A stretch of DNA of 64,000 nt from Candidatus Hodarchaeota archaeon (GTDB taxonomy: Archaea > Asgardarchaeota > Heimdallarchaeia > Hodarchaeales > Hodarchaeaceae), in contig JAEOTC010000121.1 in NCBI GenBank assembly GCA_016840035.1, positions 33,962-97,961 of the forward strand, written 5' to 3'. Of the stretch, positions 1,689-60,418 are shown one piece after another (positions within the stretch are counted from its first letter, which is position 1; each line of letters opens with the position of its first letter). The translations under genes and the position numbers were made by a program. The notes below the pieces were generated by a model. That model ran no database searches, was not told the DNA's origin, and worked only from the letters and a program-made list of their open reading frames with translations.

Positions 1689-1758
1689 ACATACAGAACT
1701 ATTTCAGATATTATCTAAACCCAATTTCAAACGCCGTAAATTGAAGGTATCAGTGACA

Positions 1759-6142: not shown

Positions 6143-6345
6143 AAGAAGAAGAGATTCTTGGATTCATTTAAGCTTCTCTCTGATAAAATCACAATTTAGG
6201 ATTTCAAAAAATCGAAAGAAGTAAGTTATTCGAACCTAGATACCCCTAGAAGATGGATAGTAATACAAATTCATGGATTGAATTAACTGCTCTCTAAAAT
6301 CTCAGAGAGACAATAAATGAATAAATAAAATGTGAGGGGGAGTAT

Positions 6346-6618: not shown

Positions 6619-6689
6619 ATTTTTCAATTCCTTTTCTCTTAAGGTAAGTTTAGTAACTTGTCGTGAGTTCTACATAAGGAACTATTCCC

Positions 6690-6697
6690 TTTAAAAA
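6690..6697 (-). promoter_or_regulatory. putative TATA box upstream of histone gene
   Basis: TTTTTAAA read on the minus strand, about 70 nt upstream of the histone ATG. AT-rich context, so weak. Confidence 0.25.
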
Positions 6698-7072
6698 CTT
6701 ATTCCATTATATCCGGTGCATTCTAGAAAGCTAACCTCAGACAACAATCATCTGAGGGAACATGAACAATTAGAGATATAGCTAGAGGAGGGAAGCTAGA
6801 ACTTTCAACTATCTCGGAAAATATGAGAAACCTGATAAAGGTACTACTTGATTATGACCAAAGAGATTCTCATATTCAGATATAGATTTTCATGAATAAG
6901 GACAATCACTCTTAGCCAATTTAAAAGAAATATAAAAATATTGATTCTCAACAGATTATATGAAGTTTAAAGCGCTATGCTTGTCTAATTTTGAATAAAT
7001 TTGCCATTTAAAAAAAAGAATTATGAAATAGGACAAGGAGTTAAAATAAATTTCAAAATAAGAAAATGGTAA

Positions 7073-8005: not shown

Positions 8006-8240
8006 GATGAAAAAGAAACAAAAGTGTGTAAAATGTGGAGGAGCTTACACAGTTAATGTTCCTAATAGTTTTTTCGAGAGGGAGGAACATCTAGTCATTA
8101 AATGCCCATATTGTAGCTCCATTACATCTATGATGATAGAAGATGGAAAATTGATTCCTGAATCCGAAGCAAGCACTTATCTAAGAAGTTTACCACAAAA
8201 ACAAGTCGAAACTGAACCTTGGGTTCAATTAATTAAATGA
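7992..8240 (+). CDS. small zinc-ribbon protein
   Basis: CVKCGG...x21...CPYCSS gives two CxxC pairs. Start may be the ATG at 8007. Confidence 0.4.
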   Translation: MKGNKMKKKQKCVKCGGAYTVNVPNSFFEREEHLVIKCPYCSSITSMMIEDGKLIPESEASTYLRSLPQKQVETEPWVQLIK

Positions 8241-8332
8241 GAATAATTTTCAACTATTCTGAAAGATCTGAGAAGTTAAACCTTCGTTTTTTATAAAAAA
8301 AGATTTTGAATTGACTTATAGTCAAAACAAAT

Positions 8333-10105: not shown

Positions 10106-11006
10106 AGAATTGTAAGAAAAACTCTTCGAGACTTGCAGGGGGATAGACAAGTTCTTCAGGATCCATAGCGAGAAGAGCTCCCATATTATCTTTAATTGAG
10201 TCCTCTGTTCTTATTAATAACCTAACGAAATTATCCTGTTTCCTATATTCTAGAAGTCTTTCACCAAACTCATTAAGACGGGATTCATCTGGGTTTTTTA
10301 GACGAGCTTCAAGAACACGTGGTACATCTTTATTTAAATCGTTAATATCTTCAACACTAATCAGAATACCATCTTTTACAATCCCAACACGATCACATAC
10401 TTTTTGTACCTCTTCCAGATTATGTGAACTCATGAATAACGTTTTACCCTCATTTTTAGATTGTAATAAAAGCTTAAACACTTCTTGTTGTAGTAATGGA
10501 TCTAATCCTGAGGTAGGTTCATCCATGATAAGAACGTCAGGATCATTCATAAAAGCAGAGACAATGCCTACCTTTTGTTTATTCCCTTTTGATAATTCAC
10601 CAATTTTTTTAGTTAGATGAGGAGTTAATTCAAACCGATCAATGATCTCTTGACGTCGTGATGCAGGTTTAGCGCGCATAGCTTCAATGTAATTAAGAAA
10701 TTCTTTAATCGTATAATACTCTGGAAGAGCTAACTCTCCAGGTATATAACCTATCTTCTCACGGAGCTTTGGATTATCACGAGTAACATTTTCTCCATTT
10801 ATTTTTATATATCCACTTGTTGGCAGTAATGTATTTATCATACAACGAATAGTTGTTGTTTTTCCAGCTCCATTTGGACCAAGAAAACCAAAAATTTCCC
10901 CACTTTTAACATTTAAATCTAAATTCTCTATCCCACAGGTTTTTCCATAATATTTTGTTAATCCTTTAATTTCTATTGTAATATCAGAGCTCAAATTCTT
11001 CACCAC
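10071..11006 (-). CDS. ABC transporter ATP-binding protein
   Basis: Walker A GPNGAGKTT, signature LSKGNKQKV, Walker B VLIMDEPTSGLD. Probable GTG/TTG start; the ORF track extends to 11030. Confidence 0.85.
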   Translation of the reverse strand: MVKNLSSDITIEIKGLTKYYGKTCGIENLDLNVKSGEIFGFLGPNGAGKTTTIRCMINTLLPTSGYIKINGENVTRDNPKLREKIGYIPGELALPEYYTIKEFLNYIEAMRAKPASRRQEIIDRFELTPHLTKKIGELSKGNKQKVGIVSAFMNDPDVLIMDEPTSGLDPLLQQEVFKLLLQSKNEGKTLFMSSHNLEEVQKVCDRVGIVKDGILISVEDINDLNKDVPRVLEARLKNPDESRLNEFGERLLEYRKQDNFVRLLIRTEDSIKDNMGALLAMDPEELVYPPASLEEFFLQFYEGKKGEIVDN

Positions 11007-11337
11007 GATTAGAAATAGAAATAAAAACAATAATCTGTTTAAATTGAATAAAAATTATGCTAGAATCAATATCTAAAATTTATCTGTTTAGTTACAATTT
11101 TTCAAAGTCCGAATTTAAAGACTGTTGGTTTAGGTAATTTGGTTTGAAAAAGAACCATTTCAGGCCAGTTCTTCTTCTATATATGTTTTATATTGAAAAT
11201 AAGATTGAAAAACCTAGTAGAACGCAAACAATGAATTCTTCTTTCAGAAAATTACTCGAATTAACCTCAATGATATTTGTAAATAGTTTTAATGTATGAT
11301 AAAGATTGAAAGTTCGGTAACACTCCTAGGTGTTTGA

Positions 11338-12444
11338 ATGGCTTATACATTTCCCCAAATGCAATATATAGTACTCTCGTGGTTATCCGTCCTTTTGGCT
11401 ATAAGTGGAACAATTATTGTATTTAGGATATATCGGAAACTTAGAGCTAAACCATTGATCTATCTAGAATTAATTTTAATATTTCTGATCCCATATAATA
11501 TTTCTCATGGTTTGTTATTTCTTGTGGGGTTTGAGGACCAGTCTGTAATGGAACTACTTTTTCGAATTCAAATGGTTTTCCTTTTCATTGTAGTTTTCTT
11601 CCTAGTTTTCTTTATAGAGTCACTAAGAGCTGATAGTCCTTCACCATTCATCTTGATGGCGCTTGGTTTAGGAATAGGTAATGGATTAGTCATGGCTATC
11701 ATTCCTGACTCCATTCAATTCGATCTTGAAATAGGCCCTTATCTTGCAGATTTTGCACGGATAGTATTTGGAATTGATCTAGTGTGTCTAGCAATTCTTT
11801 TAACCTTAAGAATTGGTAGGTTCATTCCATACGTCCCCGAAAAATACTTTAAACCGGCTCTCCTCTTTTATTTTGGGTGTTTAAGCCCTATCTTATTTCC
11901 ATTGGTATTAGTAAGTACAAAAATATCGTTAGTGATATTAGGGATAGAAATCTTAAGTGTAGCATTAGGTACATTCATTGTAATTATTGCAATATTACTT
12001 GATGAACGTGTATTACGAGTTTTACCTTTCAATGCTTATCGAATATCTGTCATCAATATGAACATTGGATTATCGATTTTTGATGTTCTTTTTAAGGCAA
12101 AACAATCAGGCCCTAATTCTAGTGTCCTCATTCCACATTTAATGACTGCAAATTTCCAGTTTGTACAATCTGTTATCCATGATACGGAAAAAATTAAATC
12201 AATTGAGACTGATAATTATTATTTCATATTTGAAGCTTATAAAGATATAGTAGCGTTTGTCATCGCTGATAAAACCTCAATGTTGATCAAATCTTCATTA
12301 AAGGAATTTGTTAAGAGCTTTTATGAAAAGTTTGGAGAAACTATTGACTCCTCCGAGATTAGTCAATATACCAACGCAGGAGCATTATTGGAATTATATT
12401 TTGCTTATCTCCCAGCATATAAAATTGTTTCTATCGGTTCTTAA
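11338..12444 (+). CDS. polytopic membrane protein (7–8 TM) with cytoplasmic C-terminal domain
   Basis: Hydrophobic N-terminal 230 aa, soluble C-terminal 130 aa. Lies directly upstream of the PAS histidine kinase on the same strand. Confidence 0.6.
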   Translation: MAYTFPQMQYIVLSWLSVLLAISGTIIVFRIYRKLRAKPLIYLELILIFLIPYNISHGLLFLVGFEDQSVMELLFRIQMVFLFIVVFFLVFFIESLRADSPSPFILMALGLGIGNGLVMAIIPDSIQFDLEIGPYLADFARIVFGIDLVCLAILLTLRIGRFIPYVPEKYFKPALLFYFGCLSPILFPLVLVSTKISLVILGIEILSVALGTFIVIIAILLDERVLRVLPFNAYRISVINMNIGLSIFDVLFKAKQSGPNSSVLIPHLMTANFQFVQSVIHDTEKIKSIETDNYYFIFEAYKDIVAFVIADKTSMLIKSSLKEFVKSFYEKFGETIDSSEISQYTNAGALLELYFAYLPAYKIVSIGS

Positions 12445-33632: not shown

Positions 33633-33710
33633 TGGCAGCCCCATCCAGATTTGAACTGGAGTCATCAGATTCAGAGCCTGAGGTGCTAAACCAAACTACA
33701 CTATGGGGCT
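33633..33710 (-). tRNA. tRNA-Gln (anticodon CUG), CCA encoded
   Basis: Reverse complement folds as a cloverleaf. Acceptor AGCCCCA/TGGGGCT, D-stem GTGT/GCAC, anticodon stem TCAGG/TCTGA, loop CU-CUG-AA, T-arm TCCAG-TTCAAAT-CTGGA, discriminator G, then CCA. An oligo-T tract follows the 3' end. Confidence 0.85.
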
Positions 33711-35306: not shown

Positions 35307-36806
35307 ATGTCCAGACTTGAAAAGCCCTCTAACCGGTCTTTAAATGCCAAAAGTGATCCTGTTCATGATCTCGAAGTAGATAAATATGTCGAATTTCAAT
35401 ACATTGGATGGAAGTTATGGTCAACTCAGAATACAGTTTTTTTCTTTCTCCTTTTTTTGTTATTTCCTATAGTAATTCTAAATTTTACCGCTTTCTGGAA
35501 AACTGGTCATTTATTATCATCCATTATCAGAATACTAGTTACTGCGCTTCTTGTTCTTGATCTGTTGGCTGTTCTATGTATAAGCTTGGGTATCATCTTA
35601 GAAAGAAAATCTACTACACGGTTAGAAGTGAAGGCTGGATTTGTCACGGTTTCTTGCTTTTGGATTCTTATTACTGGATTAGTGCGTATTCCTTTTCTCT
35701 ATGGAAGTATTTTTTCTCCTTTTTCAAATCTTGATTTCCTTTCTGTGTACTTTGACTACTTTATTGACCCGTTATTCCTATTTCTGTGGAGTATCTCAAA
35801 TATCTTTTTAGTACTCTTTTTGCTTTTTGTTTCGTATATTGAGGGTATAAAACTTGATAAAGATGTTCTAAATTCTCCCCTAATTCTTTTTGGCTTATTC
35901 TCGTTAGGACCTGTTATTATCTTTACTTCTGAAAGGATTTTTAATTTTACCAAGCTATTTCTAGGTAATGGTTTTTCACAACTCTCCTATATAGTCTTTT
36001 TCCTCTTTATAGCCAAGTTTATAATTACTCCGTTGTTGGGTAGAAGAGCAGGAAATTTAGAGATGAAACGCATTATAGATTTAGATATTTCGTCCAAGGT
36101 TGACAACATTAGGCCGAAAATAACAATAAAATTCCATAAAACTCGATTTTTAAAGTATATGAAGAAAGTACAAGCTTCTCTTATACTGCTATTCCTGTTC
36201 TCATTATTACTTCCATTGTCTCCGGTTTTTATTATGAATCTTTACAAAACTCCCCAAATAAGCATTAATCTTGACCGGAACTATGCTGATAACGAATCTA
36301 TGAATGTCATGAATCATGTTGAGGCATTACCCTTACAGGATCTAGCGAGAATTGACTCTGATAATATCATGACAAATCATACATTAACAGAGCGATTGAA
36401 ATTTATCGAAGATGCCCAAATGATGGATATATTCTATTTATTTCGTCGGTCACCCTCCAGTATTTCATTAACATGGCGTGTCAGTATTAAGGATCTAAGT
36501 TCAGTTTTACTTGATACTAATAATCTTGAGACTATAATAGAAACATATTCTGCCTTGGACTGGTGGTTTATTGAGGAAGCATACTTCGTCTACTGGGTGG
36601 ATGGGGATCTTCGTGACGACCATGAATCATTTAATTCTTCCGAATTGTACGCTAAATGGCTATATGTCGGATATTATTATTGGTATACCAATAGTGGATC
36701 AATCTTTGGTGGAAGCTCCACCACTGTGAATCAAATTGTGTTCCTCGATAGTAATCTTGATCCAATCTGTCTTTTTTTTGATGAACCTCATTACGGTTAT
36801 CTCTAG
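35307..36806 (+). CDS. polytopic membrane protein, unknown function
   Basis: About 8 N-terminal helices plus a 200-aa C-terminal soluble domain. Sits between the two MBL genes. Confidence 0.5.
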   Translation: MSRLEKPSNRSLNAKSDPVHDLEVDKYVEFQYIGWKLWSTQNTVFFFLLFLLFPIVILNFTAFWKTGHLLSSIIRILVTALLVLDLLAVLCISLGIILERKSTTRLEVKAGFVTVSCFWILITGLVRIPFLYGSIFSPFSNLDFLSVYFDYFIDPLFLFLWSISNIFLVLFLLFVSYIEGIKLDKDVLNSPLILFGLFSLGPVIIFTSERIFNFTKLFLGNGFSQLSYIVFFLFIAKFIITPLLGRRAGNLEMKRIIDLDISSKVDNIRPKITIKFHKTRFLKYMKKVQASLILLFLFSLLLPLSPVFIMNLYKTPQISINLDRNYADNESMNVMNHVEALPLQDLARIDSDNIMTNHTLTERLKFIEDAQMMDIFYLFRRSPSSISLTWRVSIKDLSSVLLDTNNLETIIETYSALDWWFIEEAYFVYWVDGDLRDDHESFNSSELYAKWLYVGYYYWYTNSGSIFGGSSTTVNQIVFLDSNLDPICLFFDEPHYGYL

Positions 36807-39662: not shown

Positions 39663-39836
39663 TGTGGATCTGATCTCCGAATTTTATAGTAAGAAGTAAA
39701 TAGGTGCGGTTCAAACGTTTAATTGTGAGGTTTACAAGCACTCGCTAACTGGATGTTAGGTAGGTATTTCGTATTGTATTTAACCAATCAGAATAGAGCT
39801 ACATTATACATTTCACACTTATTTCTGGGTCGATAA

Positions 39837-41540
39837 ATGATGACAATTTTCGAAGATGCCGAGAAACTGTGGAAAACTTATGTTGGGCATAGAAAATGGG
39901 CCTCCACAGTTTTTGGTGAAACTTGGTATGTACGGTATCCTGTAGATACTATAGGAACAGAAGAAGCAAAAACTTACAAACGATCATTATTCTTAGGTGA
40001 TGATTCTGTGCACGCGTGGGAGGCGACTGGTGTCCGTCACAAGATTATACAAAGATTAATCGATAGTACCGAATGGAAGATTCGTCCATGGTATGGAGAT
40101 CTCGGATTTTTTGCGGATCAAATAAGATTCCTGCCTCCAATGCCAGAGAGTGAACTGGATTTTGTTGTAAGAAAATCTCTGTTGGCCGAAGATCACTTCT
40201 CCAGTCGAGACCGGTTTAAGGAAACTCGAATAGAACTTCTTAGCTTTTTAGATCCAGACTTGACAGAAAGGCCTGAACAATCGTTTTTATATGATATTAA
40301 TAGACCAGAGGACATTGCAAAGAAGTATTCTAAATGCCAGATAGAACTGTACGGATTATTATTCATTATAATAACAAAACTTTATACATTGACTGATGAG
40401 GAGATTTTGGAAGTTATAGATTTTCTTTTTGATGTGGAAACTGCTGATCAGTTATTGGTACGTCGATTCATTCATCCAAATAAAGATGATAACAGACCAT
40501 TCATTGGAGAGCAAAATCCTCATACAAAGTTAAAACCAAATTTCCTCCTTCGGTATATTGCAGGGGAAAATCGTGAATTTTACCCCTTTCGAATCTTTCA
40601 TCTATGGTTACGTTTATTATTAGCATTTGACGCGAAGGCTGTTACTAAGATAGAAGATATGGAAATCGATATTGTTGATACATTTTCAGATATTGAAACA
40701 ATGAAGGAAGCTCTGCTATACGCTATTAAATTAAACCAGTTTAATACAGTAAAAGATAATTTTAAGGCTAGATTAAGAAGTGAATATGCACAACAACGAA
40801 ATTATAGTGGGTATATGTCGGAATTTATTCATATCCTCCAGAGTCAAAAAGAACTCTTTATGGATAAACCAAATTCTCTTGTACTATCACTAATCGATTC
40901 TGCAAATTACCAACCTCAGTTTTTATGTCGAGAATTAGGGGATACAATGACCTCTTCAGTCTTGAAGAATCTAGGGAGACAAGTCCCCGAACCTGAGGGT
41001 GTAAGTAAGATTCAATCAAGATTGATTCTTAATCGAAGAATACACAATCTTGAAAAACATGTTTTAACTGATGAAATCGAAGCTGAACTCTTGGAGAAAG
41101 TAACTAGTATGTTTACATACCTTGGGAGTGATACAGAGGAGCAAGCAATTGAAGATACTTTTAAATTAACCTATGACACGTTGGTTCCAAGAGGAGAAGT
41201 TTACTTTAGTGAATTAGAAAAAGAAGTCAAAGCTGCGCTTACTGAAACGGGTGACATGGATATTAGAAAGGAATTGATGGAAACTACGGATACACCGCAG
41301 AATTTAGCTAAACAATATGGAAATAAAGCTTTAAATTTAGTTGATGATGATGCTTCCATTGCAGAAATTTACTCAAGTATTTTAGCATTAAAAAGCACAG
41401 AATTGGCTTTTGGAGGAGGAAAGATTTCTATTCTGCAACAGAGGAAGATAACCCAATCATTTATTGATTTATTTAAGGAAGAGTTTAGATTTCTAGAATT
41501 ATTAACGAAAATCTCCACTGAAGGAGTACAGGAGGAATAA
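39837..41540 (+). CDS. large soluble hypothetical protein (567 aa), first gene of GTPase operon
   Basis: No TM segments and no enzymatic motif recognised. Its stop is 4 nt before the next ATG. Confidence 0.6.
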   Translation: MMTIFEDAEKLWKTYVGHRKWASTVFGETWYVRYPVDTIGTEEAKTYKRSLFLGDDSVHAWEATGVRHKIIQRLIDSTEWKIRPWYGDLGFFADQIRFLPPMPESELDFVVRKSLLAEDHFSSRDRFKETRIELLSFLDPDLTERPEQSFLYDINRPEDIAKKYSKCQIELYGLLFIIITKLYTLTDEEILEVIDFLFDVETADQLLVRRFIHPNKDDNRPFIGEQNPHTKLKPNFLLRYIAGENREFYPFRIFHLWLRLLLAFDAKAVTKIEDMEIDIVDTFSDIETMKEALLYAIKLNQFNTVKDNFKARLRSEYAQQRNYSGYMSEFIHILQSQKELFMDKPNSLVLSLIDSANYQPQFLCRELGDTMTSSVLKNLGRQVPEPEGVSKIQSRLILNRRIHNLEKHVLTDEIEAELLEKVTSMFTYLGSDTEEQAIEDTFKLTYDTLVPRGEVYFSELEKEVKAALTETGDMDIRKELMETTDTPQNLAKQYGNKALNLVDDDASIAEIYSSILALKSTELAFGGGKISILQQRKITQSFIDLFKEEFRFLELLTKISTEGVQEE

Positions 41541-41544
41541 TTTT

Positions 41545-43491
41545 ATGGTAGACTTGTCAAATATTGAAAATCAATTAGAAGAAGAATATGGAGAATTAGG
41601 CGTCAATTATCTTTTTCCACAATTAGACATCATTCGTTCTGCACGTAATCTACCATCAAATATTGAAGATGCACAATTAATGACTGAGAAACTCTTCATG
41701 TCGTATCAAATGATTGAGCAATGGTTAGCTCCAGTAATCGTTCCTATTAATGACAATTTGTTTGGTTTAGAAACACATCTACATGATCTACAAACCCAAA
41801 TAAAGCATTATATTGCACAAGATGAGATTTCATATTGGAACGATGTTGTCAACAGTGAAAATGCTAGCGTCAAGTCTCTATTTTCTGATATTAGTTCGTT
41901 ACGCAAATATATTCTAGACCAACGTCTGAAATTACTCCAATCTGCTCATCGTCAAGAATTACCTGAACTCTTCGGTTTGGTTCTTTGGCCTTATAGTGAA
42001 TATACTGATGTCAAGGATGCGATCAATGATGTTCGGAATATCTATTTCGGACCGAATAATCACTATCGTAAACAAAATGTGTTAACAGATGCTCTAATGC
42101 TAACTGCTTTATCAGAGGATGTTTTAACTCACAAAACTCAAACAAAACAATCATTCCATCATATTGATAGTTTAATCGAGACCTCACTAACCTTCCGACG
42201 TATTGAAGAGCAATTTGAATGGTCAAAATATCAACGGGATCCCAGTGATGGACATTTTACTGAAGGTCAGGTGTTTTCGATCATGGATAGTTTGATGCCA
42301 GGATATCCACGTGATCAGCTGAGAAAAGGGTTGAATACTTTCTATGATTCATCATTAGATAAGTATCCTATCGGAAAATTTATTGCGTGGCTTTCTGATG
42401 TAATGCGAATGAAAACTATGAGTAAAAGTGAGGGGGATGATCAACCAGGAGAATTACGTTTGAAAAAAGAACATTTACTCGGCCTGGCTGTAATGGATAA
42501 ACATAGGAATAGTGAAATCCTCGGCAATATTGGGAATTTGCAGGGTACTTTTGACCGGATCCTTGCTCCATTTCATGAATTAAAACAAAATAACGCATTT
42601 ATGCAGAGTTCACAGTTCGTGATCGATAATGTCGTAGAAATTCCTTCACGAGCATGGATATACGATTATAGCGGTGTGGAAACAGAAATATTGCGATCAA
42701 CACTATTTATGTTGAGTGATCGTCAACCTAAATTTGATGTACTAGAAATTTGTCAAAAGCTCGCGAATATTGTATTATCTGGAAGAGTAGACAGAAATGA
42801 TTTGGTGGACGGTAATTATGTTCGCACAAATAAGTTACCTATTCGATTATGGAATTCTATAAGCGAGCAGTTAATGAAAATTCTTGAAGAAACACTCATT
42901 CACGAAGAGATTCACTCGGTAAGGCTTTTGAAAAAAATCTTCTCCAGTGAAGATACCACCTCACTAATTACTGCAAAGAAATTTGTACCAATCTTTCAGG
43001 TAAAGACAGATTTTAAACGCGGAATCTATCATGATGAGAAAGGATTCCAAGCTGAATCTATGAGCATTTGGGTTCGTTCAGGTTTTCATTTTGAATACCG
43101 TTATGCCCAAATGGCAGGTTATCCCTGGTTTTTTGATACTAATCTTTTACTTGAGTCTCTTGTTATTGAAGCATTATCCCTTCCGTCCTTTAAGGTTTCA
43201 TCTCTACATGAGAATGTCAAATTACGTCAGACAGTATTTATTGTCGATGATTTAACATACATAGTATATTACGACCCGACTCCTGAAGGAATTTCGGTAT
43301 TGGCATTTAAAGAAGTTGATATCATGGACGAAGCAGGTATTGATCCTGTGGAAATTGTGTATCGACCACATAAATACCTTTCTTTAGGACCAGACAAAAA
43401 TAATTTGCAATTGGTCTTGGAAAATGCGCGTGCGAGCGACCCAAAGGACCTTATGACCGTTATTGGGAATATAAAATATAACTGGAGTTAG
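41545..43491 (+). CDS. large soluble hypothetical protein (648 aa), second gene of GTPase operon
   Basis: GGAGG lies 9 nt upstream of the ATG. No recognisable motif. Its stop is 5 nt before the GTPase ATG. Confidence 0.6.
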   Translation: MVDLSNIENQLEEEYGELGVNYLFPQLDIIRSARNLPSNIEDAQLMTEKLFMSYQMIEQWLAPVIVPINDNLFGLETHLHDLQTQIKHYIAQDEISYWNDVVNSENASVKSLFSDISSLRKYILDQRLKLLQSAHRQELPELFGLVLWPYSEYTDVKDAINDVRNIYFGPNNHYRKQNVLTDALMLTALSEDVLTHKTQTKQSFHHIDSLIETSLTFRRIEEQFEWSKYQRDPSDGHFTEGQVFSIMDSLMPGYPRDQLRKGLNTFYDSSLDKYPIGKFIAWLSDVMRMKTMSKSEGDDQPGELRLKKEHLLGLAVMDKHRNSEILGNIGNLQGTFDRILAPFHELKQNNAFMQSSQFVIDNVVEIPSRAWIYDYSGVETEILRSTLFMLSDRQPKFDVLEICQKLANIVLSGRVDRNDLVDGNYVRTNKLPIRLWNSISEQLMKILEETLIHEEIHSVRLLKKIFSSEDTTSLITAKKFVPIFQVKTDFKRGIYHDEKGFQAESMSIWVRSGFHFEYRYAQMAGYPWFFDTNLLLESLVIEALSLPSFKVSSLHENVKLRQTVFIVDDLTYIVYYDPTPEGISVLAFKEVDIMDEAGIDPVEIVYRPHKYLSLGPDKNNLQLVLENARASDPKDLMTVIGNIKYNWS

Positions 43492-43496
43492 AAAAG

Positions 43497-44600
43497 ATGT
43501 CAGATACACGTGAAGAATCAATTAATGCGGGAAGATTTCTCGTAGTTGGGACACAAGCTGGTGGAAAAACAGCCTTAGTTACGAAACTAGCAGCACGTAC
43601 GGATCAATCAATGAGATATGAAGAAGATTTCGGAGGAACAATCGAGACAGAATACTTACGAATATCATTCGATGAAGGAAAATTCTTCAGTTTATTGTTA
43701 CCAGTGGGAGGACAGGAAAAATGGCAAAAATTACGTGAACGATTTGGTAGTACTGCAGAAGGAATGATAGTCATATTAGATTCTTGCACTAAGAAGTTTT
43801 GGGTTAACTCTTTATCACAAGCATCTTCCATCTCTTCCTTTTTACCTTATGATAATTATCCAATTGCTGCGGTTATTACAAAACGCGATTTAAACGATGT
43901 TATTCGAAAAGAAGCTGAAAATTTCGCTCAAGCTATTATGGAGGGATTAGAACAGGCTAAGACCGCTCCAATCGTGTATTATAGTCGTGGATTTCGGATT
44001 ACCGAAAGGAAAATCCACCTCTTAAGCGATGTTCTACCATTCACAACTCTAGAACAAGTGATTGTCAATAGTCTTGAATCCAAGTATTTCTCAAACTTGG
44101 TTCCAGGTAATGCCCAACAAGGGAAAGTCCTACTTCCTGGTTTTAGTTTAGTAAATTGTCGAATTTTTAGTCGTGCATTAACTCAAGAGTTATGTACTTC
44201 TACAGGAGGGGATCAAATGCAGGTACTCAGTTTATTGAATGATATGCGTCCGAGTATGCTCGAATTAGATACGAGTTGGGTAGATTTACTCCAGAAATAC
44301 CCTAAAGCAGGTGCAGAACCTCAAGTAAATATGGCTGAATTATCAGTAGATGTAATAAAAAAGGCAATACTGAACAATCTGTTAGCCAGTGAAACTGATA
44401 TCAATAATTTTACATCAGAACTTAAAACTCTCTCTTCCAAAACTGGATGGAAAGTTAGTGGTCACGAACATCTATCAATTTTTGAGGAAGAAGGATTAGA
44501 ATCAGGGGCCGCTCTTATAAATCAGATGATGGTAGATGTAAAAGAAAGTGTACGAGTAGACAAGTTTAATCTCTTCAATCCTATTGAAGAGTTATTCTAG
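43497..44600 (+). CDS. divergent small-GTPase domain protein with about 190-aa C-terminal extension (Rag/Gtr- or Roc-like?)
   Basis: P-loop GTQAGGKTAL, switch-I Thr (GGTIETEY), G3-like LPVGGQEKW (compare DCGGQ of Rag GTPases), and G4-like ITKRDL. Confidence 0.65.
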   Translation: MSDTREESINAGRFLVVGTQAGGKTALVTKLAARTDQSMRYEEDFGGTIETEYLRISFDEGKFFSLLLPVGGQEKWQKLRERFGSTAEGMIVILDSCTKKFWVNSLSQASSISSFLPYDNYPIAAVITKRDLNDVIRKEAENFAQAIMEGLEQAKTAPIVYYSRGFRITERKIHLLSDVLPFTTLEQVIVNSLESKYFSNLVPGNAQQGKVLLPGFSLVNCRIFSRALTQELCTSTGGDQMQVLSLLNDMRPSMLELDTSWVDLLQKYPKAGAEPQVNMAELSVDVIKKAILNNLLASETDINNFTSELKTLSSKTGWKVSGHEHLSIFEEEGLESGAALINQMMVDVKESVRVDKFNLFNPIEELF

Positions 44601-45345
44601 TATCTATTGTGCCATTATGGAAGAGCATTGAGGGAAATTAAGGGGGGAGAATTACTAAAGGAGAACATGGTTTTTTCATTGAATTCCTCTAGTGAATATT
44701 GCTGCCCTTCCTCATCTCTTATATGGAAGCGTGATTCCTTCACAAGGATTTCAAATACATCCACTGCCATGGTCGGATAAAATGTATTATGACTTAGCAC
44801 TCCAAGAGATATGATTTTAGTATTGGTTGGGGAGGAAATTCGCTCAAGATAGAAGTGTGAATTCATGTCACAAAAGATAGAAAATAATAATATAATCGGG
44901 GATGTTACCTAAGAATTATGACGTTGAACTAGATTCATCAAAATAATACCAGATATTTTCATCGGTTTCAAACTTAATAAGATTCCAAAAGTCAATAATG
45001 ATTCAATAAATCCCGGAATTACCCCCTGTATATCTATTGACAAGGATGTTAACAGGAAAAAATTAATAATAACTAGAATCCTATAAAAATCCTAACATAT
45101 TGATTTTTAAATACTCTATCAACAAATAAGCACTTTACGTGTTTAACGGAATGCACCCAAGGAATTTTCAGGTCAGGAAATTACATCGACTGTTCTAGCA
45201 AAGGAGAATTGATGAGTTCTTTTCTATATTATCTGAAGAGTGTTCGAAAATCGAAGGAAATCCACACTTATGGAGTAAACTAAATCAAACCACCAAAAAA
45301 ATATAAAACTTTCAATATTTTACGTCTAGCCCCCCGGATTCGTTT

Positions 45346-47205
45346 TTGAGGCCAATTAAATTGACACATGACTCCGCTAGTACTAGTCCACTCTATCTTT
45401 CCCAACGTTGGTACACACGCGGATACAAGTGGTGGCTCTTAGGACATGTTCTGAAGCATCGGTGGAAGATTTTAGTTATTTCAGTAACTACGGTAGTGGG
45501 TATTTTTCTTCAAACCTTGATCCCCTTTATCCTTGGATATGTGTTTGCGACTATTCCCTCTGGAGATTTGAGCTTAATTTTAAGTGCAGGAACTCTTGTA
45601 ATTGCTATTGGACTCATGAAACTTGTCACAAACTCAATCGCGGCTGCTCTCAATGAAATCATTGCGCAATATGTCGAAATGCAAATCCGAATTGAATTTT
45701 ATCATAATTTAGAAACCAAATCCATGAGCTTTCATGATTCGACAAGAGCAGGGGATTTGATTCAAATGGCGACTGGGGATACTCGTCAAATCAATGCATC
45801 GATCTCTCCTGGAGTTCGAATAACGGTAACTACTATATCGACCTTACTCTTTACATGGATTGCCATGTTCATTGCCTCCCAGACACTTTCATTGGTATTT
45901 TTACTCACTCTTCCCCTATATATTTTCTTCTTGACAAGATTTGGACGAAAACTCCATCCCCTCTCCAAAAAGCGTCAAGCGATTGTCGCTCGTATGAACG
46001 CAGAATTACAAGAGAACCTGACAGGGGTCCGAGTGGTTAGAACGTTTTCTGTTCAAGATCAAGAAATTAAGAAATTTCAGGACACTCTTGAAGATTTAGA
46101 AGATATCCTCAAGGTCCGTGGAGTAACTTCTGCATTTTACATCCCTAGCCTAATTTTAGGAATTACTACGGCATTGATATTTATAGCAGGAGTATACCTC
46201 ATTGACATCACATTGGCAGGAGCAACTAATATCAGTATTTTTGGTTTTTCTATGTATGTTCAAACAGTTGGCATGGCAGAACTAATTACGTTCCTAGGGC
46301 TTACAAGTATCCTAGCAATGCCAACCATGTTCCTTCGTTGGATCTTAGATATGACATTATTAGGTTTTGCGGGAGCCGCACGAATATTTAACGTGGTAAT
46401 TCATGACAATGTAATTGAAACGGGAGATTATATACCGGAAAAAACCGCTCAGGGTCACATCGAGTTTAGAGATGTCTCTTTCTCATATACAGAGGATAGT
46501 CCATCCGTTCTCAGTAATATTTCTTTAACCATTAATCCAGGAGAGACTGTAGCGATCATTGGACCCACGGGATGTGGAAAGACCACAGTAGGAAAAATGA
46601 TTTACCGGTTATATGATGTAACGAAAGGAGCTGTATTCATAGACGGGGTAGATGCAAAAAAGTGGGATGTAAAGACTCTACGTCGTCTTGTTGGTGTAAT
46701 TGAACAGGATACATTTCTTTTTTCAACATCGATAAGAAATAACATTACCTATGGCAAGGATAATGCAACAAATGAGGAAATAATGGCTGCAGCAATTGCA
46801 GCCCAAGCACACGATTTTATAGAAGATTTTCCTGAAGGATATGATACTCTTGTAGGAGAAAGAGGAGTCACACTTAGTGGTGGTCAACGTCAACGAATAG
46901 CGATGGCCCGTGGATTCCTTGCTGATCCCAGGATACTTATCATGGATGATGCCACATCAGCGGTTGATGCTGCCACTGAAGCCCGAATCCAACAAGCAAT
47001 AGCAAATATTCAGAAAGGACGAACAACTATCATTATTACACACCGATTAGCAACATTAAAAACTGCAAATAAGATTATATTCATGGAAAAAGGGAATATT
47101 GTACGTGTTGGAACACATGCGGATTTAATAACAAGTTTTGCCCCCTATAGACGAATCTTTAAACGATACATGACCTTACCACCATTGGTAATAGAAGGAA
47201 ATTAA
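45346..47205 (+). CDS. ABC exporter, fused permease-ATPase (half of heterodimer)
   Basis: Six TM helices, then Walker A GPTGCGKTT, signature LSGGQRQRIA, and Walker B ILIMDDATSAVD. Apparent TTG start. Confidence 0.85.
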   Translation: MRPIKLTHDSASTSPLYLSQRWYTRGYKWWLLGHVLKHRWKILVISVTTVVGIFLQTLIPFILGYVFATIPSGDLSLILSAGTLVIAIGLMKLVTNSIAAALNEIIAQYVEMQIRIEFYHNLETKSMSFHDSTRAGDLIQMATGDTRQINASISPGVRITVTTISTLLFTWIAMFIASQTLSLVFLLTLPLYIFFLTRFGRKLHPLSKKRQAIVARMNAELQENLTGVRVVRTFSVQDQEIKKFQDTLEDLEDILKVRGVTSAFYIPSLILGITTALIFIAGVYLIDITLAGATNISIFGFSMYVQTVGMAELITFLGLTSILAMPTMFLRWILDMTLLGFAGAARIFNVVIHDNVIETGDYIPEKTAQGHIEFRDVSFSYTEDSPSVLSNISLTINPGETVAIIGPTGCGKTTVGKMIYRLYDVTKGAVFIDGVDAKKWDVKTLRRLVGVIEQDTFLFSTSIRNNITYGKDNATNEEIMAAAIAAQAHDFIEDFPEGYDTLVGERGVTLSGGQRQRIAMARGFLADPRILIMDDATSAVDAATEARIQQAIANIQKGRTTIIITHRLATLKTANKIIFMEKGNIVRVGTHADLITSFAPYRRIFKRYMTLPPLVIEGN

Positions 47206-47206
47206 A

Positions 47207-48994
47207 ATGTCGTTCAGTAGTGCACAAAAGAGTGATTATGACCAAGATTATTCTATTGGTGATATTCTATCTCGTTTATGGGCATTTGCAGTTACTGAAA
47301 AGATGAGATTACTTCTTGTACTTGCACTTTTTATGTTAAATACAGTAATTAGTATTATTGTACCCTTATTTCTCAGAGAAGCGATCAATGAGCTGAACAA
47401 GGGAGAAACGAATTTTGAATATGTCCAATTACTAGGATGGGGGAATTTAATTGGTACTATTACTCTGTGGATAGCATTCTATCTGATTATTCGGTCAGAA
47501 TGGGCAATTATCGCCAAAACGGTAACTACACTGAGGTTACGTATGTTCATTCAACTCCAAGCGCATGACTTATCATTTTATGACAAAAGTAAGACAGGTC
47601 GTATCATGAGTCGTGTCGTGAATGATGCCTGGGAACTTGGCAATTTTATGCTTATTTTCGTAGAACTATTGGCAAATCTCATTACTATTGTAGGAATGAT
47701 TGGAATTCTATTTTATATTCATTCTGTTTTGACTTTAACTTTATTCATGATTGCTCCGATAATATTTGCCGCTACTATTGGATTAGGCTTTTTATTAATG
47801 CGGTTTAATCGTGTTTGTAGACGAACTGTTGGAGCTGTGAATGGAGCGACTCAGGAAAGTATTGCAGGAATAATGGTTACAAAGAGCTTTGCTCGTGAGG
47901 CTCAAAATATTGAAGAATTTATGGAATTGAACAATGATAACTTACGTGCAAACATCAAACGTTCCCTCGTATTCTCCACCATGTTCCCAATCCTAGAATT
48001 TGTCTCTACATTAATTTATTTCTTGATTATCACAGCGGGGGGTGGGTATGTCATAAAAAATTCCATTACTTTGGGAGACTTATGGTTATTCTATAGCTAT
48101 TCCCTTCTCTTGATTCAACCGTTGATAAGCTTTTCACAACAAATTGCTCAATTCCAAATAGGCCGAGCTGCCGCAGAACGAATTTTTTCTTTGATTGAAG
48201 TTCCGAGTGAAATGAAATGGGGGAATATTATCCCAGGAGCTGACGTTAAAGGACATATTGAATTTAAGGATGTAACTTTTGGTTATTCAAAGGATGAGCC
48301 CCCTTTATTCTCACATTTAAATATAACAATTCCTGAAGGACAAAATATCGCCTTAGTTGGACATACTGGATCAGGAAAAACCTCCTTTATATCCTTACTA
48401 GCACGTTTTTATGAGTTTCAAGCAGGCGATATATATTTAGATGGTTATTCAATAAAAGCATATGATATCGACGCTTATCGTAGTACGCTAGGTATCGTAC
48501 TACAGGATCCATTTTTATTTAGTGGATCGATTGAGGAAAACATTAGGTATGGATCTCACAAGGAAATTGATGCAGAAACACTTCAATCAGCAATCATGTC
48601 AACTCACGTTATAGATTTTGTAGAGTTTTTACCTGAAGGATTACAAACTGATGTTGGTGAAAGAGGAGCAAAAGTCTCCCTAGGTCAAAGACAGCTAATT
48701 TCGTTTGCTCGTGCCTTAGTGGCTGACCCTAAAATCTTAATTCTTGACGAGGCTACTGCCTCAGTGGATGCTTATACAGAAAGCTTAATTCAGGATGGTA
48801 TTGACAATCTATTCGAGGGTAGAACGAGTATTGTAGTTGCACATAGACTTTCGACAATAATTTCCGCCGATCGAATTTTAGTTTTTAATCAGGGTGAGAT
48901 TATTGGTGATGGTACTCATGAAGAGCTAATGGCAAATAATGACGTGTATCGCGATTTATACTCTCGGTATTACGAGTTTCAGGGGAGAGTATGA
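47207..48994 (+). CDS. ABC exporter, fused permease-ATPase (second half)
   Basis: Six TM helices, then GHTGSGKTS, degenerate signature VSLGQRQLIS, and ILILDEATASVD. Starts 2 nt after the upstream stop. Confidence 0.85.
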   Translation: MSFSSAQKSDYDQDYSIGDILSRLWAFAVTEKMRLLLVLALFMLNTVISIIVPLFLREAINELNKGETNFEYVQLLGWGNLIGTITLWIAFYLIIRSEWAIIAKTVTTLRLRMFIQLQAHDLSFYDKSKTGRIMSRVVNDAWELGNFMLIFVELLANLITIVGMIGILFYIHSVLTLTLFMIAPIIFAATIGLGFLLMRFNRVCRRTVGAVNGATQESIAGIMVTKSFAREAQNIEEFMELNNDNLRANIKRSLVFSTMFPILEFVSTLIYFLIITAGGGYVIKNSITLGDLWLFYSYSLLLIQPLISFSQQIAQFQIGRAAAERIFSLIEVPSEMKWGNIIPGADVKGHIEFKDVTFGYSKDEPPLFSHLNITIPEGQNIALVGHTGSGKTSFISLLARFYEFQAGDIYLDGYSIKAYDIDAYRSTLGIVLQDPFLFSGSIEENIRYGSHKEIDAETLQSAIMSTHVIDFVEFLPEGLQTDVGERGAKVSLGQRQLISFARALVADPKILILDEATASVDAYTESLIQDGIDNLFEGRTSIVVAHRLSTIISADRILVFNQGEIIGDGTHEELMANNDVYRDLYSRYYEFQGRV

Positions 48995-55792: not shown

Positions 55793-58700
55793 TTGAGAAA
55801 CCCGTTTGAAATAATTGCAGATATAAATCAATCATATAAGAAATTTACTATTCCATTTGTTCTAATTTTAACCATCATGTTTGTACCTCTTGCTTTAAGA
55901 GGTATAGCAGCAACTAATGCTGATTTTGCAACATTTCTTCCACAAAATTTGGAATCAAGCCATGCTGACCAAATACTTGCCGAAGAGTTCCCAGATCAAT
56001 CAGAATCTAGTATTGTAATCTTACTCCAGAGTAAGAATGAGTCACTGGATATCTATAATGAACAGATTATTTCACTAATTCAGGATCTAGATTCAGGACT
56101 TGAAACTGAGGAAGATATTCCAGAGGTGAATTTGACCTCTTGGGTGTCATTGGAAGATAATGTGCAAGAAATTTTCCAAGAAACAATAATAGATCTCCAA
56201 TTAATGATTGCTGAGAACATGATACCGATATTGAATGATTATCAAGGTAATATCTCCATGATGAAGGAATTACTAGGTGAATTCACCATCTTAGCGAAAT
56301 CCATTGAATTATTTTCCCAGATGTTAGATTTTTACTTATTAACGTATTATGACTTTGCGAGGAGCATCTATTATCTTTCAAATCAGACAAATGCGTATGA
56401 ATCATATTTCCGTTCATCTGATTATAGTCCTCTTTATTCAGTTTGGGACAATACAACAGGAGAACTTAATCAACTTATGGTCCTTCAGGTATATCTGGCT
56501 ACATTCGATGTGATAGACCCACTGCTAATGCCCGATTTTATGATGGATGGATTGCTGAATGATTTAGTTTTAGGTTTTTTTAATCAATCAATGGGAAGTG
56601 TTGTGCCAGCTCCCTATATTCCTGCAGTCAATCAGCTTCTACTCCTTTTAAATAGTACTTGGAGTACGAACTTCGCTATTGAAACTCCAACTAACCAGTC
56701 CATGTATGGAGTTTTGGATTATTCACCAATCCCAACAGTTAATCAACTTCAACAACAATACATGCTTGGCCGATTAGTAAATGTATCGGTCTTAACTTTA
56801 AGTGATTTATTCACAGCAATTATGGCCGATCCTCAATTACAATCAAGTTTAGAATCCCTCCAAGACGTATTGGATTTGTCTGGAGATTTAATTCCAACAG
56901 TAAATAGTTCATTTATGGAAAGTTTGCATGATGCCCCACTTCAATATATGGGGTTATGGTTTGACCTTTCACGAGCAATCTATTATTTAAATAACGCTAC
57001 TGCAGCTTACCAAGATGGATTAAATAGCACTCATCTTGATATTATAAATAATACATGGGCTGGAGCACTGTACGGATTACCTAACCAAGATTATACTGTT
57101 TCAGCCTTAGCCTATACTTCAACAAGTATGCCAATTCCCCCGTCTGGATTCCCTCTCGGGGTAATAATGTCAACCAATTCTACCCTTGCAGACTCTACTA
57201 CTGATGATATAGTGTTTAATATCTTTAATGGTACTGCTTTTCAACAGTGGGCAATTGAGAACCCTGGGGATCTTCCAGGTTACTTCCAATCACAGGAGTA
57301 TCAATCTCTCCTTGTTTTAAGAGATACTTGGGCAACTTTTAGAGGAATATCTTCTCTTATAAATAATCCATTGTTTGGTGATTATGTTGGGATTCCTCCT
57401 GGAACTCCACTTGCAGAATTATCTCAGTTGGGTGTTATGGATCGATTGATGGACATTGCTAACTCTACATTCCAGGTTTATGCGAGTATGCTCTTTAGTA
57501 GTATGAACTTCAGTGAATCTGGAGTACCTCTTTCCTTGAAGATTGCGGAAACGGAATCGCTTAACTCGATAACTGAAGCTATAGGATTGACGATAAAGAA
57601 CGAAACAGAGCTACAGACCTTCGTAACACAGTTATCGGCTGGAATACTCACTCAATATATTGCTGATATTCCTATCAATATTTCAATCCTAACTACGGCA
57701 TTAAACACACAAATTATTCCATTGGCAGTGTTATATCGAGATTCCGGATTCCCAGATCAAGTTCTCCAAGATATTATTGTGAATCTGTTTATAACAATCC
57801 TTCAAAGCACTGATTTAACCTCATTTTTCGATCCCACCATGTTTGGAGAAACTGATCTTGGATCGTATGAGTTCAATATATCACAACTATTAACCTCGAT
57901 CAATTTCACAACACTAGTCGAAAATCTCTACCTTTCAACCATTCCTGGAAGCAATGTTACTACCACACTTATTGCAGCAGGAATCAGTCAAGGATTAATA
58001 TCGCAAATTACTTTAATTATTCCTGAACCAACGATTCACACCCTCCCTAATGCTGTAACTAAATCACTGATTTCTGCGGATAATAAAACCACTTTATTGG
58101 TAATTTCTTTCCCAAACAATGGTGAGGAAGAAAGTTATTCAGATTCTGTGGAAGCAATTCGAACATTGTTGCACCAGGTAGTTGTTGAAAATGATCTTGA
58201 GGATGATCTCGACTATTGGGTAACTGGGGGACTAGCCCAGTTATATGATAGTTCACACTCGATCAATGAGGATATTGAAACAGTGGATATCGTTGCAGTA
58301 ATATTAGTTGTATTACTCCTATCTCTCGTATTTCTAAGCATTATTGCACCAGTTATACCCTTACTGGCTATTGGTATTGCAATCGTTGAAGCTATTGGTT
58401 TCGTGTTTATTATTGTGACATTGGGTAGTCAAGAAATTCCTACATTGATGTTGGCACTCCTCTCTGTTACTATGCTCGGAGCAGGAGTTGATTATTGTCT
58501 GTTTATTTTATGGCGTTACAAGGAAGAACGACAATATGGACGGAACAGATATTTAGCAATCCGAGAAGCCACAATTCATGCAGGTGAATCTGTGGTATCA
58601 TCTGGTTCAACAGTTATGATTGGATTTGGTAGTCTTCTTCTATCAACATTTCCATTACTTAATCAACTCGGTTTAGGACCGATGGTTGGAATTGCGTTTT

Positions 58701-60418
58701 CACTGTTAGCTGCTTTGACGATTATTCCAATTTTTCTACATTTACTTGGAGATAAAGCATTTTTTCCACGTAATTTTGCGAAAGATTACGATAAAAATCG
58801 TGAAAGGATTCGGGCGGAGATTAAAGCCGAGAAAGAAGGCCGTAGGAGCGAGAATAAACCCCGTCGCTTCTCAATTAAATGGATGAGTCACTGGACAGTT
58901 AAACATCCTTGGCCTGTTATTTTAGCCTTCCTCGCAGTCACTGCATTCTTTGGTGTGAAAATGCTTGACATTCGTGTAAGTTACGACACCGCGGATCTAC
59001 TCCCTCTAAATGTGGAGTCCATGGATGGTTTTCAAGCAATGGAAGGTAACTTCCCCAAAGGCCAGCTGTACCCAATTAAGATCGTCTTAAAGTTTGAGGA
59101 TCCGCTTTCTGCCCCAACTGATCCGATGTATGACCTGACAAAGCTACAGCAGATAGAATCTTTTGCACAGGCTATAGAGCAAGAATTCAGATTAACATCA
59201 GGTGGAGAAACATTGGTTAGCCAAATTAATACGGTAACAAGGCCTAATGGAGTACCCATTAATTTCTCTGAATCCCTTGATCCGTTAACATTTGGATTAC
59301 TAACTCAATTTGTTGGTCCTACCACTAACACTACCGTTGTTCTTGATGTGGTTATGGATGTTGACCCAATAGGCGGTGAATCCCTTAGATTTGTTGGTAA
59401 TCTTCGTTTATTCGTGGAGGAATACCAAATCGACAATGAAGGAACCGTTTTTGGGACTCAGGACTTAGAAATAGTCATTGGGGGTACCACTGCACATTTC
59501 AAGGATATGTCAGAAATAATCGAACGCGAAACTCCCATGATCGTTGCTTTTGTATTGATAGGGATCTTTATTGTCTTATATCTGATAACTGGCTCACTTT
59601 TTACACCTATTCGCTTAGAACTGACTATTCTAATGACAGTTATCATCACGCTGGGTGCTAGCCAAATTTTCTTTGTAGAGTTCCTTGGTTATGGAATCTC
59701 ATGGGTAATGCCGATAATGTTATTTGTCTTAATCTTTGGATTAGGAATGGACTATGACATCTTCATTATCACACGAATGCGTGAAGAAGTGGCACTACGA
59801 GGATTATCAGATGAAGATGCAATTTTAGAAGCATTAGATAAAAGTTCAACCATTATCACAGCAGCAGGCCTTATCATGGCTTCTTCATTGGGCTCTCTCT
59901 ACGTAGGTGATTCGGCTATCCTTAAATTATTTGGTTTTGCATTTTTCGTAGGAATTTTATTAGATGCTACTCTTGTAAGGCAGTTACTTGTCCCTGCTAT
60001 CATGGTAGTTGCTAAAAGAGCCAATTGGTGGAATCCAATCAAAGCGCTACAGCGAGTACCTAGTGAAGAAAAACGAGAATGGATCCGTGAAGCTCAACTA
60101 GAGAAACTCGAGCAAGAACATAAACAAAAAGATCTAACTGATAATCAGTTGAAAGAATTCCGAGGAAAGATGAAAAAGTATTGGAAAGAAGTCTCAAAAC
60201 TTGAGAAAATGCGTAAAGAGATGTCAGACGATGAATATCTTAATAATTTGTCAAGAGTTGAGAAATCTATTAGGAATCTACCCCGTAATGTCCGTCAAAC
60301 TTTTATTCTCGATGTTCGAAGATTGATTGGGAAAATTGAGAAGTTACGTGACAAGACTGCAGGGAAGATCTACAATACGATCGAAATCGATAATCTCAAA
60401 TTTAAACTGGAGAAATAG
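55793..60418 (+). CDS. giant MMPL/RND-superfamily membrane protein (1541 aa)
   Basis: N-terminal TM1, then an ~800-aa extracytoplasmic domain and TM cluster 1 with the MMPL motif GAGVDYCLF. A second ~330-aa extracytoplasmic domain precedes TM cluster 2 with GLGMDYDIF, followed by a ~115-aa coiled-coil tail. Apparent TTG start. Confidence 0.8.
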   Translation: MRNPFEIIADINQSYKKFTIPFVLILTIMFVPLALRGIAATNADFATFLPQNLESSHADQILAEEFPDQSESSIVILLQSKNESLDIYNEQIISLIQDLDSGLETEEDIPEVNLTSWVSLEDNVQEIFQETIIDLQLMIAENMIPILNDYQGNISMMKELLGEFTILAKSIELFSQMLDFYLLTYYDFARSIYYLSNQTNAYESYFRSSDYSPLYSVWDNTTGELNQLMVLQVYLATFDVIDPLLMPDFMMDGLLNDLVLGFFNQSMGSVVPAPYIPAVNQLLLLLNSTWSTNFAIETPTNQSMYGVLDYSPIPTVNQLQQQYMLGRLVNVSVLTLSDLFTAIMADPQLQSSLESLQDVLDLSGDLIPTVNSSFMESLHDAPLQYMGLWFDLSRAIYYLNNATAAYQDGLNSTHLDIINNTWAGALYGLPNQDYTVSALAYTSTSMPIPPSGFPLGVIMSTNSTLADSTTDDIVFNIFNGTAFQQWAIENPGDLPGYFQSQEYQSLLVLRDTWATFRGISSLINNPLFGDYVGIPPGTPLAELSQLGVMDRLMDIANSTFQVYASMLFSSMNFSESGVPLSLKIAETESLNSITEAIGLTIKNETELQTFVTQLSAGILTQYIADIPINISILTTALNTQIIPLAVLYRDSGFPDQVLQDIIVNLFITILQSTDLTSFFDPTMFGETDLGSYEFNISQLLTSINFTTLVENLYLSTIPGSNVTTTLIAAGISQGLISQITLIIPEPTIHTLPNAVTKSLISADNKTTLLVISFPNNGEEESYSDSVEAIRTLLHQVVVENDLEDDLDYWVTGGLAQLYDSSHSINEDIETVDIVAVILVVLLLSLVFLSIIAPVIPLLAIGIAIVEAIGFVFIIVTLGSQEIPTLMLALLSVTMLGAGVDYCLFILWRYKEERQYGRNRYLAIREATIHAGESVVSSGSTVMIGFGSLLLSTFPLLNQLGLGPMVGIAFSLLAALTIIPIFLHLLGDKAFFPRNFAKDYDKNRERIRAEIKAEKEGRRSENKPRRFSIKWMSHWTVKHPWPVILAFLAVTAFFGVKMLDIRVSYDTADLLPLNVESMDGFQAMEGNFPKGQLYPIKIVLKFEDPLSAPTDPMYDLTKLQQIESFAQAIEQEFRLTSGGETLVSQINTVTRPNGVPINFSESLDPLTFGLLTQFVGPTTNTTVVLDVVMDVDPIGGESLRFVGNLRLFVEEYQIDNEGTVFGTQDLEIVIGGTTAHFKDMSEIIERETPMIVAFVLIGIFIVLYLITGSLFTPIRLELTILMTVIITLGASQIFFVEFLGYGISWVMPIMLFVLIFGLGMDYDIFIITRMREEVALRGLSDEDAILEALDKSSTIITAAGLIMASSLGSLYVGDSAILKLFGFAFFVGILLDATLVRQLLVPAIMVVAKRANWWNPIKALQRVPSEEKREWIREAQLEKLEQEHKQKDLTDNQLKEFRGKMKKYWKEVSKLEKMRKEMSDDEYLNNLSRVEKSIRNLPRNVRQTFILDVRRLIGKIEKLRDKTAGKIYNTIEIDNLKFKLEK

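Follow-up and report, generated by a model that had tools for sequence, protein, structure and literature searches.

A conserved three-gene operon of Heimdallarchaeia encodes a divergent Ras-superfamily GTPase together with two orphan proteins

The stretch of DNA analysed here, called the window, comprises 64,000 nucleotides (nt) from Candidatus Hodarchaeota archaeon (assembly GCA_016840035.1, contig JAEOTC010000121.1, positions 33,962 to 97,961) and has a G+C content of about 35%. It contains three consecutive genes, designated g1, g2 and g3, which are a real operon, that is, one unit of transcription and translation. The g3 product is a small guanosine triphosphatase (GTPase) made up of a Ras-superfamily G domain without clear subfamily and a C-terminal domain that matches nothing, and the products of g1 and g2 are orphan proteins. 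According to the best-supported reading, which we consider rather probable, the products of g1 and g2 assemble into an obligate heterodimer, for which g3 serves as the dedicated nucleotide switch. A first-pass annotation, made from the letters of the DNA, had described three tightly coupled genes for 567, 648 and 367 amino acids (aa) with gaps of 4-5 nt and GGAGG before the second gene, and these coordinates were confirmed:

39837-41540, plus strand: g1, open reading frame (ORF) of 567 aa
41545-43491, plus strand: g2, ORF of 648 aa
43497-44600, plus strand: g3, ORF of 367 aa
41531-41535, plus strand: GGAGG ribosome-binding motif for g2, 9 nt ahead of its ATG and within the 3' end of g1
43484-43487, plus strand: GGAG ribosome-binding motif for g3, 9 nt ahead of its ATG and within the 3' end of g2
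39800..39836, plus strand: probable promoter region of the operon, as read from sequence alone

Operon structure, conservation and duplication

The stop codon of g1 and the start codon of g2 are separated by 4 nt (41541-41544), those of g2 and g3 by 5 nt (43492-43496), and with the motifs listed above g2 and g3 would be translated from internal ribosome-binding sites. Direct reading of the sequence upstream of g1 revealed no Shine-Dalgarno-like motif; an A/T-rich TATA-like element (cattatacatt) is located at about 39801-39812, roughly 25-35 nt ahead of the ATG, and g1 would be the promoter-proximal first gene, possibly leaderless. The A/T-rich spacer 5' of g1 has 174 nt and is shared with a divergently oriented PHP-family gene. 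No terminator-like site was detected between the three genes in a scan for bacterial-type promoters and terminators, a type of scan that is uninformative for archaea.

In a locus scan with one genome per species and with gene order determined by tblastn, 12 loci were returned, 11 of which contain g1, g2 and g3 in this order; the twelfth is a fragment of 2.6 kb in which only a part of g3 is present. Altogether, all related loci long enough to hold the three genes (L001-L009, L011-L014 and L016) have them in the order g1-g2-g3, and all of these loci belong to metagenome-assembled genomes of Heimdallarchaeia/Hodarchaeales, the tblastn match for g1 being limited to its C-terminal third in L006. 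Because the same three genes occur in the same order in every such locus, the arrangement is not due to chance, and the conserved neighbourhood that the first-pass annotation had proposed to look for is present, here within Heimdallarchaeia. In the divergent triads of L013, LC_3 (L014) and L016 the genes overlap by 1-8 nt or are separated by 1-17 nt; the GTPase of LC_3 is OLS16490, annotated as 'GTPase KRas precursor'. Labelled homologs of all three proteins are nearly all assigned to Heimdallarchaeota, Hodarchaeales or Promethearchaeota, and nearly all of the 41 g1 homologs carry a Heimdall or Hod label, in agreement with the earlier assignment of the DNA to an Asgard-type genome. The few homologs labelled as Odin-, Thorarchaeota or Calditrichaeota are taken to be results of mis-binning. 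The module, which was found here only in Heimdallarchaeia and mostly in Hodarchaeales, seems to have arisen within this lineage and has no detectable eukaryotic descendant.

Natural in-frame fusions of g1 and g2 occur in at least three distinct proteins (P0112, P0185 corresponding to ORF 6344-9976 of L008, and P0187), and the profiles of both g1 and g2 match these fusions over their full length; the record of P0112 is incomplete and lacks about the first 120 residues of g1. A very divergent g1+g2 fusion, P0203, is encoded in L017, where the region 6001-12062 contains the gene for this protein of 1094 aa followed by two tandem genes for paralogs of 383 and 398 aa, each composed of a GTPase and the C-terminal domain and displaying the motif NDNPGQ. 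In L003 a second copy of the triad (93-1748) lies in tandem 0.25 kb upstream of the main one, and in L016 a second, highly divergent copy (within 1-3478) is found 2.7 kb upstream of the main one, comprising a g2-like gene (491-2260, E 3e-22) and a gene for a GTPase with C-terminal domain (2282-3478, E 2e-9), as judged with the family profiles. In the duplicated modules each GTPase paralog adjoins its own g1/g2-type genes. Fusion, translational coupling and duplication as a unit are typical marks of proteins acting in one complex, and the conserved order, the fusions, the tandem duplication and the variant arrangement in L017 together point to an obligate g1-g2 complex that serves its own GTPase.

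That the module is duplicated, that its components are orphan proteins and that a gene for an N6/N4 DNA methylase is present upstream in 5 distant loci might also be expected of a mobile system for defence or conflict that is centred on a GTPase, an explanation that we regard as very improbable. None of the three proteins matched a PADLOC family at E <= 1, and no nuclease, protease, TIR, Sir2 or transmembrane effector domains were found with Pfam and NCBIfam. The only PHROG match with E < 0.001 was obtained between g2 and one family of unknown function (E 0.00077, 19.8 bits, 61 residues) and, as a possible link to phages, was treated as noise. No integrase or transposase homolog recurs in the flanking ORFs of related loci and none was present among the neighbours scanned with Pfam. 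Only the close relatives L001, L002 and L007 have the flanking genes of the window (MBL, APH and PHP on the upstream side, two ABC exporters on the downstream side), the neighbours of distant triads being different; with the flanks kept in these three relatives, the module does not resemble a mobile island.

The GTPase g3 and its C-terminal domain

The g3 protein can be divided into the following parts:

43497..44087, plus strand: G domain, residues about 1-197, with Ras-superfamily GTPase fold
44088..44600, plus strand: family-specific C-terminal domain, residues about 198-367 (about 170 aa)
44571-44597, plus strand: C-terminal tail ...F-x-L-F-(D/N)-P-I-E-E-L-F, highly conserved across the family

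The G domain contains the P-loop GTQAGGKT (18-25), the switch-I threonines T48 and T51, LPVGGQE (68-74) and TKRD (128-131), much as the first-pass annotation had described them when it proposed a divergent GTPase. The P-loop agrees with the G1 pattern of the Ras superfamily (GxxxxGK[ST]), and the G4 motif NKxD is present in the form TKRD, in which K129 and D131 are kept and Asn is replaced by Thr. PxGGQ is found instead of DxxGQ at the G3 motif, where G72 and Q73 are invariant and where, in the main clade, the position of the Asp is occupied by an invariant Pro69 (LPxGGQ). An alignment of 82 family sequences reveals that G18, G23, K24, T48, T51, P69, G71, G72, Q73, K129 and D131 are invariant and that T25 of the P-loop is nearly so. 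Profile and fold analyses both identify g3 as a small GTPase of the Ras superfamily. With 32.1 bits it exceeds the threshold of 21.6 for the Pfam family Ras, it also matches Roc, and with 21.3 bits it stays just below the threshold of 22.3 for Arf; among the 82 family members, Ras and Roc are each matched by 82 and Arf by 78. When the family profile was compared with the PDB, H-, K- and M-Ras were found (E about 4e-9), covering residues 13-137 only, and the AlphaFold2 (AF2) model displays a confident GTPase fold, with a predicted local distance difference test score (pLDDT) of 86.3 and a predicted template modelling score (pTM) of 0.86.

That the P-loop, the Thr residues of switch I, Gln73, K129 and D131 never vary speaks for genuine binding of nucleotide and probably for its hydrolysis by g3. 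This constancy also bears on an alternative in which the three proteins would make up a stable assembly, for instance an assembly chaperone or a scaffold, and g3 would be a permanent structural part of it, possibly without catalytic activity (like a pseudo-GTPase), and not a cycling switch, in the manner of Arl2 in the tubulin-cofactor D/E/Arl2 complex or of SR-beta in the receptor of the signal recognition particle (SRP). Such a role is unlikely, as the conservation of these residues in all 82 sequences argues for selection on nucleotide binding and hydrolysis, as divergent paralogs keep canonical DxPGQ and NKxD/SKRD, and as the score of g3 against CIN4 is indistinguishable from that against dozens of other small GTPases.

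Very divergent g3 paralogs possess the canonical WDNPGQ or NDNPGQ, together with NKTD or SKRD, and their Asp aligns with Pro69. Because these paralogs keep the canonical Asp at the aligned position, Pro69 appears to be a derived state that was fixed in the main clade. In Ras, Asp57 holds a water molecule that coordinates Mg2+, and for this reason the substitution suggests an altered coordination of Mg2+ in g3, which could result in weak affinity for Mg2+ and fast exchange or in the need for a residue contributed by a partner.

The C-terminal domain is well conserved, and the AF2 model predicts that it consists mainly of helices next to a small sheet. It contains the invariant motifs SLVNxR (in a longer form SLVNxRxFxRAL), LLNDMRPxxLELD and YPxAGxEP; no PDB sequence matches it at E <= 10, and among the 82 family members no Pfam family covers this part of the protein. 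The first-pass annotation had predicted an extension of about 190 aa that could be roadblock- or longin-like, of which the extension itself, somewhat shorter, is present, whereas its roadblock or longin nature received no significant support and no roadblock dimerisation domain was recognized at the C-terminus. The final residue, F367, is invariant in an alignment of 13 sequences and nearly so among the 82 sequences, and the PIEELF tail looks like a candidate docking peptide.

The orphan proteins g1 and g2 and comparison with known systems

Neither g1 nor g2 matched any family of Pfam, NCBIfam or PADLOC, in accordance with the earlier observation that both lack recognisable motifs, and neither family profile retrieved a PDB sequence at E <= 10. 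A search of 1.84 billion representative proteins with the g2 profile found only 26, which were orthologs, fragments, g1+g2 fusions and two distant paralogs, and a Pfam domain was present in none of 4 matches checked. Several candidate relationships were rejected. A match of g1 to Pfam FPL (CLEC16A), obtained with 7 of 37 homologs, is restricted to one helix (profile positions 26-62 of 148) with a best E of 0.0029 and was considered noise; a match of g2 to CEP290 (16 of 49 homologs) looks like an effect of coiled-coil composition and was treated likewise; and homology among g1, g2 and g3 was dismissed, with hhalign probabilities of 0.1-0.2%.

Residues 1-556 of g1 and 5-648 of g2 were modelled with AF2 as a single chain from an alignment comprising both families, in which each g1 row carried about 20-28 stray tail residues. 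In the resulting model (pLDDT 80.6) g1 is entirely helical, as is the N-terminal half of g2 (about 1-294), and residues about 311-648 of g2 form two alpha/beta units with the order beta-beta-alpha-beta-beta-beta-alpha. The conservation map places most of the invariant g2 residues in this C-terminal half. The best-conserved segments of g1, residues 31-78 and 471-556 (window 39927-40070 and 41247-41504), have a pLDDT below 50, and because they are best conserved yet modelled with so little confidence they are candidate partner-binding segments that may fold on a partner absent from the model. In such a scheme the all-alpha orphan g1 would be one subunit of a g1-g2 partner complex.

A different origin is proposed by a reading in which the module is of eukaryote type, with g3 as a Rag/Gtr- or Arf-like GTPase carrying a roadblock or longin domain and with g1 and g2 as divergent longin, DENN or tri-longin subunits of a guanine nucleotide exchange factor (GEF) or GTPase-activating protein (GAP), the named homologs being Mon1-Ccz1, Fuzzy-Inturned, FLCN-FNIP and components of GATOR/Ragulator. 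Like the tri-longin Rab GEFs (Mon1-Ccz1, Fuzzy-Inturned, BLOC-3), in which two large co-dependent subunits attend one small GTPase, the module combines two subunits of 550-650 aa with a GTPase, and the tandem alpha/beta units of g2 have a strand and helix order that is also that of longin and roadblock domains, the one point that supports this reading. Chains of Fuzzy/Inturned (7q3e_B, 9rs9_B) and KICSTOR occur in the Foldseek list, which contains no significant fold matches. Unlike tri-longin subunits, g1 is entirely helical, and no significant structural or sequence similarity to them was found; the same holds for structural or profile similarity of g2 and of the g3 C-terminal domain to a longin/roadblock platform. 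Small longins of the FLCN/SMCR8 type are encoded by Asgard archaea (PMC12290439), and g2 has no detectable relation to these. The DENN, TRAPP, GATOR or Ragulator folds which the first-pass annotation had proposed to look for were not recovered for g1 and g2, as neither Pfam and NCBIfam profiles, nor PDB sequences at E <= 10, nor any significant fold match pointed to them. The first-pass suggestions of roadblock, longin, DENN, Rag and GATOR did not stand up in any of the tests made, and its interpretation is supported in part. Altogether, we judge a eukaryote-type module to be improbable.

The G domain leads to a similar assessment. Rag/Gtr GTPases (with Ragulator, FLCN-FNIP and GATOR1; Asgard Rag-like proteins are exemplified by LokiRagO, 8yl2) resemble g3 in combining a G domain with a C-terminal domain, and the two tandem GTPase paralogs of L017 recall Rag heterodimers. 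However, the specific likeness to Rag/Gtr that had been seen in VGGQE was not upheld: the Gtr1/RagA-type G domain (PF04670) is absent among the 25 families listed for the g3 family, the weakest of which was matched by 3 of 82 members at E <= 1, and structures of Rag receive lower scores than those of Rab, Ras and Arf. ArfR/AArf are likewise Asgard small GTPases, and the VGGQE-K-W segment of g3 resembles DVGGQDK of Arf; unlike them, g3 has the extra C-terminal domain and Pro in place of the Walker-B Asp. Assignment to Arf/ArfR is further contradicted by the Arf profile score below the cut-off, by the higher score for Ras and by the N-terminus of g3, MSDTREESINAGR, which is polar and, unlike that of Arf, without obvious amphipathic helix, as judged by reading the sequence and with helix propensity not computed. 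Among prokaryotic systems, MglA-MglB (with RomR/RomX) is comparable in that a small Ras-superfamily GTPase is encoded beside its dedicated partner or partners.

The spacing between G1 and G2 is 24-27 residues in g3 and 18-19 residues in Arf1 and Ras. Rup3 has been described as a Heimdallarchaeia-specific group of the Ras superfamily with expansions between G1 and G2 and between G2 and G3 and without eukaryotic relatives (Vargova et al., bioRxiv 10.1101/2024.02.28.582541). Like Rup3, the g3 module, as found here, is limited to Heimdallarchaeia, stands apart from the Ras, Arf and Rag groups and has no detectable eukaryotic relatives; g3 and its paralogs are longer by about 6-9 residues between G1 and G2, and divergent paralogs by a few between G2 and G3. 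Unlike Rup3, the g3 of the window lacks the G2-G3 expansion. Rup3 is defined by insertions in the G domain, and a C-terminal domain or partner genes are not mentioned in the text of bioRxiv 10.1101/2024.02.28.582541. Accordingly, g3 may belong to Rup3 or stand outside it. No mention of g3-family accessions (OLS16490, PWI47153 and others) was found in the literature searched.

The proposal that we favour, a g1-g2 heterodimer with g3 as its dedicated switch, would work as follows. The all-alpha g1 and the g2 protein, with its alpha half and its alpha/beta half, would form the obligate heterodimer, and the family-specific C-terminal domain of g3 would dock g3 on g1-g2, dimerise g3, or both. Binding and hydrolysis of guanosine triphosphate (GTP) by g3 would alter the state of the complex, and g1-g2, in physical association with g3, would serve it as a dedicated regulator (GEF or GAP), as an effector or as a scaffold. 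The following points weigh against this proposal: the pTM of the fused model is only 0.55 and even the g1-g2 interface is therefore not confidently modelled; g1 and g2 are unlike any known GEF, GAP or effector and give no significant fold matches; with the Walker-B Asp replaced by Pro69 in the main clade, Mg2+ handling or GTPase activity may be atypical or lost; and the neighbouring genes yield no functional clue. A more far-reaching version, for which we see a limited chance, holds that g1-g2 is a new class of GTPase regulator or effector built on new folds, or else an extremely divergent longin/roadblock pair in its C-terminal units, and that its dedicated GTPase, without Walker-B Asp, uses a new C-terminal domain for dimerisation or docking.

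Neighbouring genes and biological meaning

Downstream of g3, a gap of 745 nt precedes two adjacent genes of ABC exporter type on the plus strand (45346-47205 and 47207-48994), whose products share 32% identity and probably form a heterodimeric exporter. An ORF of 83 aa in this gap (44615-44866, minus strand), convergent on g3 and without Pfam match, is probably not a gene. The ABC pair follows the triad only in the close relatives L001, L002 and L007, and the spacer between g3 and the ABC genes varies from 0.7 to 3.7 kb across the window and these relatives, in which it contains extra genes. In 7 loci of more distant genomes (L003-L006 and L009-L011) a gene for a GNAT acetyltransferase lies convergently directly after g3, and in 4 of these 7 the next gene encodes a protein of 710 aa with DHH, OB, S1 and zinc-ribbon domains. 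Elsewhere in the window, a gene at 35307-36806 (plus strand) encodes a protein of 499 aa with a strongly hydrophobic N-terminal half and no Pfam match, which has counterparts of about 37% identity in L001 and L007; a very large ORF of 1541 aa extends from 55793 to 60418 (plus strand); and the sole tRNA of the window is tRNA-Gln (CTG) at 33633-33710 (minus strand).

Asgard genomes encode very many small GTPases, and it is rarely possible to pair one of them with its regulator or effector. In the cultured Asgard archaeon MK-D1, GTPase genes as a rule do not share operons with roadblock, longin or TRAPPC3 genes, and matching them to regulators is difficult for this reason (Tran et al. 2024, PMC10933270). 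The g1-g2-g3 operon is a counter-example to this pattern, with partners that resemble no known type. The operon, the natural fusions and the co-duplication single out one GTPase and two partners for co-expression and direct tests. A small GTPase with co-encoded dedicated partners is known from other systems; new are the families of the partners, the C-terminal domain and the lost Walker-B Asp. The invariant loss of this Asp, with all other catalytic residues kept, represents an unusual natural experiment in GTPase chemistry. Since no relatives of g1 and g2 could be detected beyond the group, their structures would probably reveal new folds and perhaps a new way in which a Ras-like switch is controlled or read. 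Since no eukaryotic homologs were found, the module bears on heimdallarchaeial cell biology and not directly on the ancestry of eukaryotic trafficking. If the far-reaching version described above holds, the operon would encode a self-contained GTPase cycle in a lineage widely regarded as being among the closest archaeal relatives of eukaryotes.

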